Shown piece by piece: positions 4,095-50,740 of a DNA stretch of 64,000 bases. The position numbers and the translations under genes are program-made. Every line of letters begins with the position of its first letter. The first letter of the stretch is position 1. The notes beneath the pieces are model-generated. The model was not told where the DNA came from and searched no databases. It was given only the letters and a program-made list of their open reading frames with translations. This stretch comes from Candidatus Phycocordibacter aenigmaticus (GTDB lineage: Bacteria; Patescibacteriota; Minisyncoccia; Phycocordibacterales; Phycocordibacteraceae), in NCBI GenBank assembly GCA_045401115.1, contig CP174359.1:355247-419246 (forward strand). The letters run 5' to 3'.

Positions 4095-4415
4095 ATGCAG
4101 AACGTAGCTATACGACTGATTTTTATTGTACTTTTGGTAATCCCGATTGCTTCTAGTGAATTATTGCACGCAGTTATTCCGCATAGTCACTCGAGTAATA
4201 CAGTGATTGCTGAAGAAATGCATACGTTTTTTAGACATGAAGAAGGTGATGCGCTCGCTCTTTTTGATTTCATTCCTTTTTTCTTTTTTGTTCCACTGGT
4301 CGTATTTTTTGTGTCATGGCGATGGCGTGATCTCAGTGCGCGATTGATTAGAAGTGTTCATGCTGAACGTATTGCGCTACGGCGAGGTATCCTCCCTTAT
4401 AGATGTTTTGGTTGA
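4095..4415 (+). CDS. Hypothetical small membrane protein
   Basis: ORF with N-terminal hydrophobic segment; no recognisable domain. Confidence 0.25.
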   Translation: MQNVAIRLIFIVLLVIPIASSELLHAVIPHSHSSNTVIAEEMHTFFRHEEGDALALFDFIPFFFFVPLVVFFVSWRWRDLSARLIRSVHAERIALRRGILPYRCFG

Positions 4416-4462
4416 CCCCCCTTCTTTTATTTATTCGTGACTTATTAATTAACATTATTGTT

Positions 4463-5266
4463 ATGCAGAATATAATTGTAGGAATTGTTCTTTTACTAGT
4501 CGGTTTTTTTGGTGGGTATTTCGTCTCAGGTAATACCCTTTCAGAGGAACATAATATCCATTCTGAAACAGAGGAGCATGGTGATAGTGGGCATGCGATG
4601 GAGCATAGCACTCCAGTTGATGTACCCGCTGGTGCTTCAGCTCCGGCAGTTGCTCTTGAGGTGTTCGAAGACCCAATGAGTGGATGGAATGTAAAAATTA
4701 CCACTGAAAATTTCCGTTTTTCTCCAGAAAACGCGTCTCAAGACCACATACTCGGTGAAGGGCACGCACACGTTTACGTTGATGGAGAAAAAATTAACCG
4801 TGTCTATGGGTCGTGGTATCATCTCGGCGATCTATCAGTTGGTGAGCATGAGATAAAAGTGAACTTAAACGCAAACAATCACAACCCATACTCAGTAAAT
4901 GGTGTGTTGGTTGAAGATTCCGTAACCGTTGTTGTTGAGCCAGAGCCGGAGTTTGATGCGGCGAACGCTAAAATGATGAGTCTCTCACTAACAAATCGTA
5001 CACTTTCTCCGGAAATGGTAACGGTTTCTGAAGGTGATAGTGTGCATCTCATGGTGAACACTGATGAAGCTGGTGAGTTCCATATTGCCGGCTATGAGGT
5101 TGTGCAAGAGATGAGCACTGACGGAGCAACAAGTATTATGTTTGTTGCTGATCAGGCTGGGCGTTACGCGCTTGAATTCCACCCTAATTCAGGTGGGCAT
5201 ATGGATGAGGAAGATCATGGAACCATGGAAGACATTGAGATTGGTTCTCTTCTGGTAAATCCGTAA
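4463..5266 (+). CDS. Secreted or anchored His-rich metal-binding protein with cupredoxin-like C-terminal domain
   Basis: N-terminal TM anchor; His-rich linker (HSETEEHGDSGHAMEH); C-terminal beta-rich domain with H...FVADQAGRYALEFH resembling cupredoxin/EfeO-like Cu sites. Confidence 0.5.
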   Translation: MQNIIVGIVLLLVGFFGGYFVSGNTLSEEHNIHSETEEHGDSGHAMEHSTPVDVPAGASAPAVALEVFEDPMSGWNVKITTENFRFSPENASQDHILGEGHAHVYVDGEKINRVYGSWYHLGDLSVGEHEIKVNLNANNHNPYSVNGVLVEDSVTVVVEPEPEFDAANAKMMSLSLTNRTLSPEMVTVSEGDSVHLMVNTDEAGEFHIAGYEVVQEMSTDGATSIMFVADQAGRYALEFHPNSGGHMDEEDHGTMEDIEIGSLLVNP

Positions 5267-11468: not shown

Positions 11469-11498
11469 TTAAACGGCTCACTCCAGTGAGCCGTTTAA
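11469..11498. terminator. Bidirectional terminator hairpin (member of the AAACGGCTCAC palindromic family) between convergent typA and corA
   Basis: TTAAACGGCTCAC-TCCA-GTGAGCCGTTTAAA. Confidence 0.65.
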
Positions 11499-11514
11499 AA
11501 TAGAGCAAGTATTT

Positions 11515-24264: not shown

Positions 24265-24296
24265 AATAAACGGCTCACCATAGTGAGCCGTTTATT
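24265..24296. terminator. Terminator hairpin after groEL (AAACGGCTCAC palindromic family)
   Basis: AATAAACGGCTCAC-CATA-GTGAGCCGTTTATT followed by T-run. Confidence 0.65.
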
Positions 24297-24336
24297 TTTA
24301 TTCATTTTTTTAATAGATGTTTGATATACTACAGAC

Positions 24337-26463: not shown

Positions 26464-26550
26464 CGGAGGAGTGGCTGAGTGGTCGAAGGCGCTCGCTTGG
26501 AAAGCGAGTGTGGGTTTACACCCACCGCAGGTTCGAATCCTGTCTCCTCC
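26464..26550 (+). tRNA. tRNA-Ser (anticodon GGA), class II with long variable arm
   Basis: GGAGGAG acceptor stem, anticodon loop TTGGAAA, T-arm GCAGG-TTCGAAT-CCTGT; CCA not encoded. Confidence 0.85.
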
Positions 26551-26736
26551 GCAGATGTCTAAGAAAATGCGAAAGCGTTTGATTAGAAAAAGCTGCGCAA
26601 GGAGAGAGAATTCGAACGGGAAGGGGGTCGGGGAAACGGGAGTTTCCCCGTGGCGGAATGAGGCGAAGCCGGACATAAAACCGAGGGGTTTTATGAGCGC
26701 AGCGAAGCGAGCAGTGAGATTCCTGTCTCCTCCGCA
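26551..26736 (+). mobile_element. tRNA-flanking structured element A, ending in a direct repeat of the tRNA-Ser 3' end (att-like)
   Basis: 18/19-nt copy of the tRNA 3' end at 26716-26736; GNRA hairpin 26563-26578; hairpins 26629-26650 and 26674-26695. Confidence 0.5.
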
Positions 26737-35884: not shown

Positions 35885-36151
35885 GATGTCCGCGCTAGAA
35901 CGCTTCGCTATCTCACTGCTCCCCAGCACCAGTTTGAGACAAAATGAAAATGGTTCGAAAATCTTTGTATGGAAATGAAACGTATCATACCTACTCACGT
36001 CCGTTCTCAAACTGGAGCTGGGTGTGCTCATAGAACCCTCGGTTCTATGTCGGCCAAAGGCCTAACTCCTCCACGGGAAAACAACGTGTTTTCCCGACCC
36101 TTTTCCAGTTCGATTCCTAGCAAGGGCACGGAATATGCTTCGCATTTTTAT
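35885..36151 (-). mobile_element. tRNA-Arg-flanking structured element E (related to element A), with an inverted copy of the tRNA 3' end
   Basis: 21-bp inverted repeat 36108-36129 / 36154-36175 involving the tRNA 3' end; hairpins 36029-36049 and 36074-36096 homologous to those of element A. Confidence 0.45.
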
Positions 36152-36227
36152 TGGTGCCCTTGCTAGGAATCGAACCTAGATCTAGAACTTAGGAGGTTCT
36201 TGTTCTATCCATTGAACTACAAGGGCA
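36152..36227 (-). tRNA. tRNA-Arg (anticodon CCT), CCA encoded
   Basis: Reverse complement gives TGCCCTT acceptor, anticodon loop CTCCTAA, GGTTCGATTCC T-arm, ...GGGCACCA. Confidence 0.85.
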
Positions 36228-36325
36228 TAGTGCTTCACGATAATGCGCGTCTTTTGCAAGCAAGAAGTGAATAGAAGTCTTGCTTATATTCACGCCGACG
36301 CGCCGCAAAAGTGGAAGCGCATTAT

Positions 36326-36598
36326 CTTACCACGCGCCCGCGTATGAAAAGACACGCAGTGCTTTCATACAAGAGCCAAAGGTTTGTGGTATTCCCACTG
36401 GCTCATGAAATACACGCAGTGATTTCATACAAGGGTGAGTAAAGGAGCTCGCTTACATTTTTGTTGAGGCGATGGAAAAAGTAAAGCGTGTTGCCTTACC
36501 ACGCGCCCGCGTATGAAAAGACACGCAGTGCTTTCATACAAGAGCCAAAGGTTTGTGGTATTCCCACTGGCTCATGAAATACACGCAGTGATTTCATA
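36326..36598. repeat. Two ~104-bp perfect direct repeats (36326-36429 and 36495-36598, period 169 bp), each holding two palindromes with a conserved ACACGCAGTG centre
   Basis: Direct comparison; TATGAAA...TTTCATA and CATGAAAT...ATTTCATA sub-palindromes. Confidence 0.8.
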
Positions 36599-36673
36599 TA
36601 AGGCATCGGACGTATCAAGCCGCACGGGGGTAAATACCCCCTAAACGGCTCTCTATGTTGTACACTGTTTTAT

Positions 36674-37012: not shown

Positions 37013-37188
37013 AAAGATGGATTTTTGAGTGGGTTTTGATAGAATGGGGGACATTGCTAAGATTGAATGGTCTTGGTGATTGCCCTGCCGAGGGAAGATG
37101 TACTTCGTGTTATCTTGCCTCGGATGCAGTAAAGTTCCTCTCGAGGTAAAGCTTCTTACGGTCGCTTTGCCTCGGCGTCGAGCTGAGA

Positions 37189-37284
37189 GAATACGCTTCC
37201 TTTTTTCCGGCACGTCAACAAAAATGTAAGCGAGCTTCCATTTTTGTCTTGCTTGGAAAAATCGCGTATTCTCGTTAACCTCTT
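37189..37284 (+). promoter_or_regulatory. Conserved upstream stem-loop/promoter region of tRNA-Phe (homologous region lies upstream of tRNA-Arg)
   Basis: 10-bp inverted repeat GAGAATACGC...GCGTATTCTC; shared CTTGCTTG-AAAA-CGCG-ATT-TCGT block with 36229-36330 (tRNA-Arg). Confidence 0.45.
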
Positions 37285-37358
37285 GCCGAGGTAGCTCAGG
37301 TGGTTAGAGCACTGGTCTGAAGAACCAGGTGTCGGCGGTTCGAGTCCGCCCCTCGGCA
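37285..37358 (+). tRNA. tRNA-Phe (anticodon GAA)
   Basis: GCCGAGGTAGCTCAGGTGGTTAGAGC..., anticodon loop CTGAAGA, GGTTCGAGTCCGCC T-arm. Confidence 0.9.
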
Positions 37359-37561
37359 CAAAAACAATGAAGCCCGATACGAGAGTATCGGGCGATTTGT
37401 TTTGTAGCTACGAGGGCGGACTCGAAAGACGGAGCCGTGGGTCCCCATTGTGCTGAGTTTCAGGCACAATGGGGCGGCGAGTCCGGGCAGGAGGTTGTTA
37501 TGAGTTTTTCTATCGAGAGATAGGTAAAAACGAATTACGAACCTGACGCCGAGTCCGCCCC
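37359..37561 (+). mobile_element. tRNA-Phe-flanking structured element B, ending in a 12-nt repeat of the tRNA T-loop/T-stem (CGAGTCCGCCCC)
   Basis: GNRA hairpin 37373-37392; hairpin 37443-37476; shared 16-mer CGAGTCCGGGCAGGAG 37478-37493; junction GACGCCGAGTCC 37545-37556. Confidence 0.45.
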
Positions 37562-37589
37562 ATAACTTAGACTGGTTTATACTATACAT

Positions 37590-38096
37590 ATGGAGAAAAA
37601 AGTTTCCGTGAGTTTGGTAGACCAGCCAAACTATTCCTATACGCTTACTGAGCCGGTAGGGAAGAATTTTGACCCTGAATTTACGCCACACCTTACCCCC
37701 AAAGAGATGCTTGAGTTGGGCGTATTTTGTGGTCAATATATGCGCGACGGTGCCAAGGAATTTCCTGACTCATGGTTTACAAAAGCAAAGTTTACTAAAG
37801 GAGACAAAGCGGATTGCTCACTCAACTATTTTAAGGTGAATGCAAGCCAACCGCTTAGCGCATGGCAGGAAAAAGGATGGATACATCCAGACGATCCACG
37901 TGGGTGGTTTCAGTGGTACTGTCGGTATTACATGGGAAGGCGTCATGAGGATGATGAACGACAAATAAAGCGATGGAAGGCGTTTAGACGCCATGCAGCA
38001 CAAGTGCGAAACAACTGCGAGAGAGGAGATATGGGTTGTCGGTCCAAACAGCGCCAGGCCCTTCTGCACTGGGCATATGATAGTCGAAAATTATAA
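37590..38096 (+). CDS. Conserved hypothetical protein (Trp/Cys-rich; GWFQWYCRYYMGRR motif)
   Basis: 168-aa ORF with terminator; family not identified with confidence. Confidence 0.45.
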   Translation: MEKKVSVSLVDQPNYSYTLTEPVGKNFDPEFTPHLTPKEMLELGVFCGQYMRDGAKEFPDSWFTKAKFTKGDKADCSLNYFKVNASQPLSAWQEKGWIHPDDPRGWFQWYCRYYMGRRHEDDERQIKRWKAFRRHAAQVRNNCERGDMGCRSKQRQALLHWAYDSRKL

Positions 38097-41595: not shown

Positions 41596-41629
41596 ATATA
41601 AACGGCTCACCCAGGTGAGCCGTTTATAT
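41596..41629. repeat. AAACGGCTCAC palindromic hairpin (family copy 3) in a divergent intergenic region
   Basis: ATATAAACGGCTCAC-CCAG-GTGAGCCGTTTATAT. Confidence 0.7.
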
Positions 41630-41738
41630 CTATGGCATGTCCGTCCTTTAATGAGGGAAGCGACGAATAAAGTTCTATCACTGCCTAAGCTATTGCAATT
41701 ATAGCTATTATGTTGCATAATAAATATAGATAAAATAT

Positions 41739-44003: not shown

Positions 44004-44010
44004 ATACAGA

Positions 44011-44213
44011 TGTTGTGGGCGATACAGGACTCGGCGTCAGGTTCCTAAGCTCATTCATCGCTCCGCTCTTCATTCACTAAGGACCTCCTGCCCGGCCTCG
44101 CCGACAAGCACTCGCTCTCGCTCGTCTTGTATACCGGCTCCGGCTTTCTCGTCCTGTGTCGCTGCTACAAACCTAAGTTGCATCATGCATGCGCATACTG
44201 CTCTAAGGTTTTG
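44011..44213 (-). mobile_element. tRNA-Val-flanking structured element D, ending (44011-44030) in a 20/21-nt direct repeat of the tRNA 3' end
   Basis: TGTGGGCGATACAGGACTCG present at 44011-44030 and 44212-44231; GACGCCGAGTCC junction and CCGGGCAGGAG motif on the minus strand. Confidence 0.5.
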
Positions 44214-44287
44214 TGGGCGATACAGGACTCGAACCTGTGACCTCGTCAACGTCAATGACGCGCTCTAGCCAACTGAGCTAATCGCCC
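44214..44287 (-). tRNA. tRNA-Val (anticodon GAC)
   Basis: Reverse complement gives GGGCGATTAGCTCAGTTGGCTAGAGC, anticodon loop TTGACGT, GGTTCGAGTCCTGT T-arm. Confidence 0.9.
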
Positions 44288-44327
44288 TTATTATGGGTGG
44301 GTCCAGTGTAGCTATTTTTAAATCTAT

Positions 44328-49803: not shown

Positions 49804-49887
49804 GGAGGAGTGCCCGGAATTGGTAACGGACCGCTCTCGAAAAGCGGCGCGGGAAACCGCTTGTGGGTTCGAGTCCCATCTCCTCCG
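49804..49887 (+). tRNA. tRNA-Ser (anticodon CGA), class II
   Basis: GGAGGAG acceptor, 3-bp D stem, anticodon loop CTCGAAA, variable arm, GTGGG-TTCGAGT-CCCAT T-arm. Confidence 0.8.
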
Positions 49888-50083
49888 CAAATGTCTAAGA
49901 AGACGCGAGAGCGTCTGATTAGCAACAATTGCGAGAAGGAGATGAGGCGAGAAAGACGGAGGCCGCGAAGCCGTGACGATAGTACACGTGGCCGAGTCCG
50001 GGCAGGAGCCACTTAGTATTTTGTGAGCAAAGCGAGACAAAATAGTTAGTGAGTTGACGCCGAGTCCCATCTCCTCCGCAAAT
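49888..50083 (+). mobile_element. tRNA-Ser(CGA)-flanking structured element C, ending in a 23-nt direct repeat of the tRNA 3' end
   Basis: CGAGTCCCATCTCCTCCGCAAAT at 49871-49893 and 50061-50083; GNRA hairpin 49901-49916; 16-mer CGAGTCCGGGCAGGAG 49993-50008. Confidence 0.5.
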
Positions 50084-50632: not shown

Positions 50633-50710
50633 GTTTTTCTTGGTTATCTACTATAATTTCATAGTACCATTCTCGTTGATATTGTGTAGCGTCACACCTA
50701 TAAACGGCTC

Positions 50711-50740
50711 AATGCATTGAGCCGTTTATTACACACCCTT
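50711..50740. repeat. AAACGGCTCA palindromic hairpin (family copy 4) in a divergent intergenic region
   Basis: ATAAACGGCTCA-ATGCAT-TGAGCCGTTTAT. Confidence 0.7.

Follow-up and report, generated by a model that had tools for sequence, protein, structure and literature searches.

The 202 nt that directly follow the 3′ end of the tRNA-Phe(gaa) gene (element B, 37360-37561) in the window, by which the whole 64-kb stretch of DNA analyzed is meant, are a bona fide member (92.9 bits with a covariance model) of an apparently undescribed family of structured, tRNA-linked elements. An element is composed, in this order, of a variable palindrome (P1), an arm antisense to its own tRNA, a core of twin hairpins in a three-way junction that ends in CTGACGCC, and a copy of the tRNA end. 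Five of the six tRNA genes of the window carry such an element, the sole exception being tRNA-Glu. The parts of element B, all on the plus strand, are as follows:

37285-37359, plus: tRNA-Phe(gaa), host gene of element B (ARAGORN; Rfam tRNA, 69.6 bits)
37341-37352, plus: left repeat copy inside tRNA-Phe, C56 to position 67, comprising the T-loop and the 3′ strand of the T-stem (12 of 12 nt identical to 37550-37561)
37361-37403, plus: P1, variable nested palindrome with GAGA loop and inner stem 37372-37393 (fold, repeat search)
37411-37426, plus: antisense arm CGAGGGCGGACTCGAA, reverse complement of tRNA-Phe 54-66, extending to about position 70 with one bulge
37424-37550, plus: conserved core, ending CTGACGCC (covariance-model match 37414-37562, 92.9 bits)
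37428-37483, plus: hairpin P3, variable tip 37443-37474
37478-37493, plus: 16-mer CGAGTCCGGGCAGGAG, in the conserved core
37486-37550, plus: hairpin P4 with a bulged A, tip 37510-37523 with GAGA loop
37550-37561, plus: right repeat copy CGAGTCCGCCCC, exact 12-nt direct repeat without the acceptor 3′ strand

The stretch folds with −99.1 kcal/mol (z = −8.6 versus shuffles). P1, a nested GAGA hairpin already described in a sequence-only reading of this DNA, lies exactly where it had been placed: outer arms AAAACAA...TTGTTTT (37361-37403) enclose GCCCGATAC-GAGA-GTATCGGGC (37372-37393). It is terminator-like on both strands, scores as a bidirectional terminator and precedes the core. The same reading had reported a long stem-loop, which is present as an 11-bp stem-loop in P3 (CCCCATTGTGC/GCACAATGGGG at 37443-37453 and 37464-37474) but ends at 37474 rather than at 37476. 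The antisense arm (37411-37426), the second GAGA-capped hairpin (37510-37523) and the junction had escaped it. Within the arm, GGGCGGACTCGAA pairs with tRNA-Phe positions 54-66; in the fold the arm pairs with the right repeat (11 of 11 nt with 37550-37560), forming the helix P2 that closes the core. The core begins with a GAAAG junction, and the terminus of the element reads GACGCCGAGTCCGCCCC (37545-37561). ARAGORN found six tRNAs and nothing else in the window, with neither a cloverleaf nor a tmRNA in element B.

The 16-mer CGAGTCCGGGCAGGAG, which had been noticed as common to elements B and C, proved to be a genuine family signal. It is found in the 64-kb window at 37478-37493, again exactly at 49993-50008 and with one mismatch at 44085-44100 on the minus strand, i.e., three times within one mismatch versus 0.12 times expected, a number reached in none of 100 shuffles. 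All three copies lie in elements, and two further elements of the window have the same layout:

44013-44212, minus: sister element of the same core type at tRNA-Val(gac) 44213-44287 (101.1 bits; 20-nt repeat)
49889-50083, plus: sister element, element C of the sequence-only reading, at tRNA-Ser(cga) 49804-49888 (96.3 bits; 22-nt repeat)
26553-26736, plus: divergent element with a second core type and the same layout at tRNA-Ser(gga) 26465-26552 (18 of 19 nt repeat)
35901-36151, minus: element of the second type at tRNA-Arg(cct) 36152-36226 (perfect 22-nt antisense arm)

The tRNA-Arg(cct) element has an insertion in the distal hairpin and a decayed right repeat. The genes around the elements of the window are ordinary housekeeping genes (those for LepA, ValRS, TsaD, HSP20 and PrsW) and some unknowns. 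Elements are present in both orientations within the one replichore that the window covers, and a replication-strand bias was therefore dropped from consideration.

From the aligned cores the consensus GAAAG-N-CGGAg(hairpin)cGAG-N′-CCGGGCAGGAG(hairpin with bulged A)CTGACGCC was derived. On its first side a 3-bp helix GNC:GN′C, in which N:N′ is G:C in 33, C:G in 26 and A:U in 25 cases, is followed by the internal loop GGA/GA and then by the P3 stem; on its second side a 3-bp helix GGC:GCC is followed by the 3 × 3 loop AGG/GAC and the P4 stem. Over 89 distinct sequences 97.5% of the cells are paired, with double changes at 15 of the 16 pairs; none of 500 shuffles was as good, and slid controls gave 25-40%. 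RNAalifold returned the same core helices, and a scan for mutual information added the pairs between arm and right copy (P2) and no pseudoknot. The nucleotides of the junction and of the internal loops are conserved. P3 and P4, as we read them, are alike, each with a G-C foot, a purine-rich loop and a stem, a shape that would suit a dimeric binder. P1, on the other hand, is completely different between family members, and the left ends of the copies are unrelated; there are also several divergent core types, with different junction sequences under one common layout.

Two other interpretations of the core were given up. The pairing CGGA:UCCG of the minimum free energy fold was replaced by the covarying 3-bp helix GNC:GN′C. 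Ribozyme readings (hammerhead, hairpin ribozyme, twister, group II domain V/VI) of the strings GAAAG, CUGAC and GAGCCG, which were weighed by reasoning rather than by software, were rejected because the covarying helices misplace these strings, the supposed catalytic nucleotides vary and Rfam is silent.

Outside the window the family was sought with a gapped pattern of 21 bases in 185,579 species genomes. About 100 matches in GC-rich genomes were due to chance (loci of the L047 type; most of L006-L121), which means that a uniform base composition badly underestimates the number of matches to be expected in such genomes. The true members were all from Patescibacteria (Saccharibacteria, Paceibacteria, Parcubacteria, Spechtbacterales and others). 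A stricter scan of metagenomes yielded 82 loci, and a covariance model built from 15 cores gave 99 matches, 89 of them distinct, from 71 low-GC sources and only in loci of the CPR type. Viral contigs returned chance matches only. With Rfam 15 only tRNAs and no element family were found in the window and only far-sub-threshold matches at E ≤ 10 in 37200-37650; the matches in ten related loci were to tRNAs, to one RNase P RNA and to one group I intron, and all of them lay outside the elements. The full-text literature, as searched, held no description of such elements. The group I intron (L138:4401-4639, minus strand; Rfam 80.8 bits) is found immediately upstream of an element and probably interrupts a tRNA that ARAGORN left uncalled there.

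The elements are closely tied to the tRNAs that they follow. A copy begins 20-80 nt after the end of 58 distinct tRNAs of about 18 amino-acid specificities, the elements being co-oriented with the tRNA in every case and directly abutting its 3′ end. The right repeat, which follows CTGACGCC, reproduces its tRNA from G57 through to the end and mostly measures 18-20 nt. Of 43 copies that could be parsed cleanly, 35 agree with tRNA positions 57-73 at all 17 nt behind CTGACGCC. Usually the repeat ends one to three bases beyond the discriminator. Its length ranges from 5 to 60 nt across copies, and the long ones (28-60 nt) take in the downstream hairpin. The antisense arm, 10-22 nt long, adjoins the core and can pair with two partners, the right-hand copy and the tail of its own tRNA. 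In about 35 of 62 copies it pairs from T54 to positions 62-72; in other copies a small conserved hairpin, GCAAACTGCTTTGC, separates an anti-acceptor from an anti-T-stem part (L138, L059, L122). Even beside a decayed right copy, the arm has kept its match to the tRNA (4 versus 1 in L037, 5 versus 2 in L163).

In the window and 69 related loci, the discriminator of a tRNA gene is mostly followed by C-A-(A), not by CCA or by random sequence. The arm matches this gene-encoded trailer (CAA) or stops earlier; a TGG to pair with CCA is absent from it even in L196, where the gene does encode CCA. The CA after the discriminator was considered as a mark of insertion and rejected, since it is found with or without an element. 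The idea that CPR tRNA genes generally have a native terminator plus anti-acceptor was also rejected, since, of the 69 tRNAs in these loci that lack a type-A core, 58 are not followed by an antisense match of more than 7 nt. The 10 antisense-bearing exceptions examined have further structured sequence downstream, several with a copy of the tRNA tail, and are read as other core types.

In element B the terminal repeat is indeed, as had been claimed, a copy of the T-loop and T-stem part of tRNA-Phe, 37550-37561 being identical to 37341-37352, and it is indeed short, 11-12 nt versus a family mode of 18-20 nt. The missing acceptor portion, which was to be sought in relatives, is present there: the tRNA-Phe elements of L193, L191 and L189 have repeats of 20, 31 and 60 nt. 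Since the arm of element B still reaches the acceptor strand and tRNA-Phe elements elsewhere carry 20-60 nt, the repeat was probably truncated after insertion. To conclude from a shorter repeat that the copy is older is unsafe, however: the genome with cores that are 94-95% identical to each other has the worst repeats (7, 5 and 16/20 nt). The retained 11-12 nt close the junction, and element B therefore need not be dead. The designation "att-like" is not supported as far as it implies an integrase site, no integrase having been found in or near any copy.

We propose, at a confidence somewhat short of an even chance, that the elements are non-autonomous, protein-less insertion elements which recognize tRNA ends by base pairing beside protein-binding hairpins. 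An element would be present or former mobile DNA, handled by an enzyme that is encoded elsewhere in the genome and whose existence we infer. The twin hairpins, each built from a G-C foot of 3 bp, an internal loop rich in purines and a stem, would be the binding platform for this trans-acting enzyme, and the adjacent antisense arm would select the tRNA tail by base pairing, in keeping with the guide logic of IS200/IS605 but over 10-22 nt in place of 4. The right-hand copy would be a second paired site or a target duplication; since it re-creates the target, tandem arrays would be explained. In element B this copy would have been shortened to 11-12 nt while still closing the junction. The specificity of the arm for each tRNA might have arisen, as one possibility, by template switching in the quasi-palindrome formed by tRNA, P1 and arm.

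For mobility speak, besides a family of about 90 copies with a covarying structure, a tRNA-tail repeat and an antisense arm, several findings at individual loci. Rarely, elements are found behind protein genes instead, where the sequence is T-arm-like: one with a clean 36-nt repeat lies at the 3′ end of such a gene (L037:5784-5898), and L123 is a second site of this kind. Tandem arrays of elements are found in L175, L189, L034 and L183, and there are versions of 2-3 kb, bounded by the tRNA on one side and by core plus repeat on the other, with HicAB, an HNH endonuclease or a methyltransferase as cargo. In one genome the cores at tRNA-Ser, tRNA-Leu and tRNA-Phe are 94-95% identical, whereas among four genomes the cores at the orthologous tRNA-Phe gene share no more than 60-77% identity. 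This pattern could also be due to gene conversion of old copies, because it is the near-identical cores that have the poorest right repeats.

Against mobility stands that no integrase, transposase or reverse transcriptase was found beside the copies or in the cargo versions, and that none is recurrent in the 69 loci. Neither a Y1 HUH transposase nor TnpB was seen in the 64-kb window and in the loci of 1-15 kb. Near element B, which has no room for an integrase, none was found either, its neighbors being HSP20, PrsW, ValRS, LepA and unknowns. A pair of filled and empty alleles of one site was also not found. At tsaD, tRNA-Val plus element (44004-44327 of the window) lie between divergent genes for a HAD hydrolase and TsaD. 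A relative with a 90% identical TsaD has only a 30-nt spacer at this position, with neither tRNA-Val nor element (L205:2187-2218 and L206:2972-3001 were compared); a relative with 64% identity also lacks both at this position, and its tRNA-Val is accompanied by a terminator and a short stretch of antisense sequence, without a core. The alleles thus differ by the whole tRNA-Val plus element, and it is the position of the tRNA-Val gene itself that is polymorphic. A search for an empty site via the protein encoded downstream of element B ended with a sole other contig that stops 63 nt before the gene. Furthermore, IS200/IS605 elements have no repeats of 18-20 nt and have targets of 4-5 nt, the retargeting of both arm and repeat to a new tRNA is left unexplained, and an occupancy of five out of six tRNA genes suggests something that is tolerated or used by the cell.

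On the question whether the core folds as RNA or as a DNA strand the evidence is mixed. The sense strand folds better than the antisense strand in 83 of the 89 copies, and a strict terminator precedes the core in only 19 of 62; together with the co-orientation with the tRNA these findings fit a role as RNA equally well. A plain count of terminators behind the right repeat proved unreliable. G·U pairs make up about 1.3% of the core pairs, barely more than A·C; a strand test based on these counts (31 versus 17) was too weak to decide. Of the apical triloops 43 of 85 are C(GNA)G, only 4 of 65 tetraloops are GNRA, and GCGAAGC occurs 21 times on the sense strand versus twice on the antisense strand. 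Scarce G·U pairs, C(GNA)G triloops and rare GNRA loops typically go with stable DNA mini-hairpins and not with structured RNAs, and this DNA-hairpin flavor is in favor of an insertion element.

The elements could instead be cis-encoded structured RNAs that are co-transcribed with the tRNA, an explanation which we regard as possible and hold only tentatively. The arm would pair either with the 3′ third of the tRNA, which would be misfolded or masked, or with the downstream copy, by which the junction would be closed; the junction would then be a protein- or ligand-binding switch acting on tRNA maturation. Alternatively, arm and copy would form a minihelix resembling acceptor and T-stem, by which the tRNA-processing enzymes could excise a stable RNA. 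That the elements are always on the strand of the tRNA and directly abut it, that five of the six tRNAs in the window carry one, that the sense strand is the more stable and that strict terminators before the core are few would all be as expected, and the junction and internal-loop nucleotides are conserved as they are in aptamers. The split arm of many copies gives a minihelix-like shape, and the arm keeps its match to the tRNA where the right copy has decayed. The scarcity of G·U and GNRA and the frequency of GNA triloops are, however, unusual for functional RNAs, and the divergent core types and junction sequences under one layout argue against a single aptamer. Copies at the 3′ ends of protein genes, tandem arrays and cargo genes, the bidirectional terminator-like P1 before the core of element B and the silence of Rfam likewise speak against such an RNA.

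We consider it improbable that the elements are miniature remnants or cis-mobilizable derivatives of integrase-driven islands that use the tRNA T-loop, with the repeats as attL and attR. The left copy would have arrived with the element, and the right copy would be the displaced original tRNA end. The repeat does span the T-loop to just past the tRNA end, reportedly the classic block of identity for elements that integrate in the T-loop (Williams 2002, Nucleic Acids Res 30:866); decay of the right copies is what one would expect of a displaced fragment without use, and cargo-bearing versions of 2-3 kb exist. Yet an integrase was found neither near the elements of the window nor in the cargo versions nor in the 69 loci, and what marks the right junction is the invariant CTGACGCC and not a symmetric core site specific for the tRNA. 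One core serves about 18 specificities, and a tRNA end borne by the element would wreck the new target tRNA; we know of no integrase family that occupies tRNAs of about 18 specificities with one core. The antisense arm and the covarying junction are left unexplained. That unrelated tRNA trailers resemble each other by chance or through low complexity, for which only the shared T-loop heptamer CGAGTCC speaks and which the sequence-only reading had wanted checked with shuffled controls, is practically excluded by these controls, by the covariation and by about 90 distinct homologues.

The proposed protein-less insertion element has its nearest counterparts among the Y1 HUH systems IS200/IS605, the protein-less PATEs derived from it and REP/REPIN. 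Like the elements these are small, without terminal inverted repeats conserved among copies, with conserved imperfect hairpins that contain bulges and internal loops, and with strand-specific folding; their non-autonomous copies use an enzyme in trans, as is proposed for the elements. In IS608 a guide at the foot of a hairpin recognizes the site by base pairing (PMC5027513), and in IS200/IS605 a segment at the 5′ foot pairs with the flanking target or cleavage site (PMC5027513), a part which the antisense arm beside the core may play in the elements. The two conserved hairpins of the elements may likewise, as in these systems, be recognized as single strands. The elements differ from IS200/IS605 in that pairing extends over 10-22 nt (not 4-5) and is directed to a tRNA tail, in that they are flanked by a direct target repeat of 18-20 nt, which IS200/IS605 lack, and in that the hairpins adjoin at one three-way junction rather than lying at opposite ends. 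From classical MITEs they are distinguished by the absence of terminal inverted repeats conserved among copies and of a fixed short target duplication; their arm and repeat do pair with each other but are tRNA-specific.

T-loop islands and prophages with P4-type integrases, and CIMEs, share with the elements the repeat from T-loop to 3′ end, the intact tRNA, the distal decay and the cargo, whereas the elements are only 130-200 nt long, have no integrase, serve many tRNAs per family and contain, besides a conserved structure with covariation, an antisense copy of the target in their interior. Integron attC and CTX-phi attP sites would resemble them in that the function would lie in a folded strand, with imperfect pairing and extrahelical bases, and in that units accumulate as arrays at one site; in the elements, by contrast, the core is strongly conserved, the stem is target-specific and a site of the IntI or Xer type is not recognizable.

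A conserved scaffold beside a variable, target-matching segment is also found in the IS110 bridge RNA, in the EBS/IBS pairing of group II introns and in the omega RNA of TnpB/IscB, where the flanking DNA serves as guide, and the position of the TnpB guide corresponds to the right flank of the elements (tRNA 57-76, 17-20 nt) after the conserved end. Unlike these systems the elements have no recombinase or nuclease gene and no Rfam match, and their would-be guide is paired to an internal antisense arm. The primer-binding site of retroviruses and LTR elements (about 18 nt) is, like the arm, antisense to a tRNA 3′ end through the T-loop, whereas the arm lacks the TGG for CCA and a reverse transcriptase was not found.

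Patescibacteria have tiny genomes with single-copy tRNA genes, and a structured appendage of 130-250 nt on five of the six tRNA genes of the window has been missed by standard annotation. If mobile, the elements would be a protein-less family with the choice of target written in a base-pairing arm beside a conserved scaffold; the guide-plus-hairpin logic of IS200/IS605 would then also apply to matches that are long and programmable, and small gene islets as well as assembly breaks at tRNA genes would have an explanation. As RNAs, the elements would be the first case of structured elements that each serve their own tRNA in cis. A generalization that covers both cases, and about which we are doubtful, is that a new class of nucleic acid-guided device resides on most tRNA genes of Patescibacteria, with the arm programming recognition of the 3′ third of its own tRNA: either (a) as a guide-bearing element that homes to tRNA tails without an enzyme of its own or (b) as a switch, governed by the junction, with the arm either masking the nascent tRNA or bound to the decoy copy. 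Were the switch version true, tRNA maturation would be controlled directly and gene by gene. The covariance model is a practical handle for annotation and for a search for the partner enzyme by phylogenetic profiling.

Several repeats were observed in the vicinity of the elements. Between tRNA-Arg and an ORF of 112 aa there is a 156-nt direct repeat (36279-36434 and 36448-36603, 87% identical), and a 58-nt inverted repeat (78% complementary; arms 36446-36503 and 37179-37236) brackets this ORF upstream of tRNA-Phe. The region 37080-37180, also upstream of tRNA-Phe, contains extra copies of the acceptor strands of this tRNA, namely TGCCGAGGG, which is antisense to the 3′ end, and TTGCCTCGG twice, as well as CTCGGCGTC, the reverse complement of the element end GACGCCGAG; it may be the wreck of an inverted element. 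The 168-aa ORF just 3′ of element B has no Pfam match, and its first 28 nt (37590-37617) are 79% identical to 4782-4809, inside the ORF 4403-5266. An intergenic palindrome, ATAAACGGCTCAC-NNNN-GTGAGCCGTTTAT, is present in four copies (11469-11504, 24266-24301, 41598-41633 and 50700-50735), suggestive of a bidirectional terminator used in common or of a small family of repeats.
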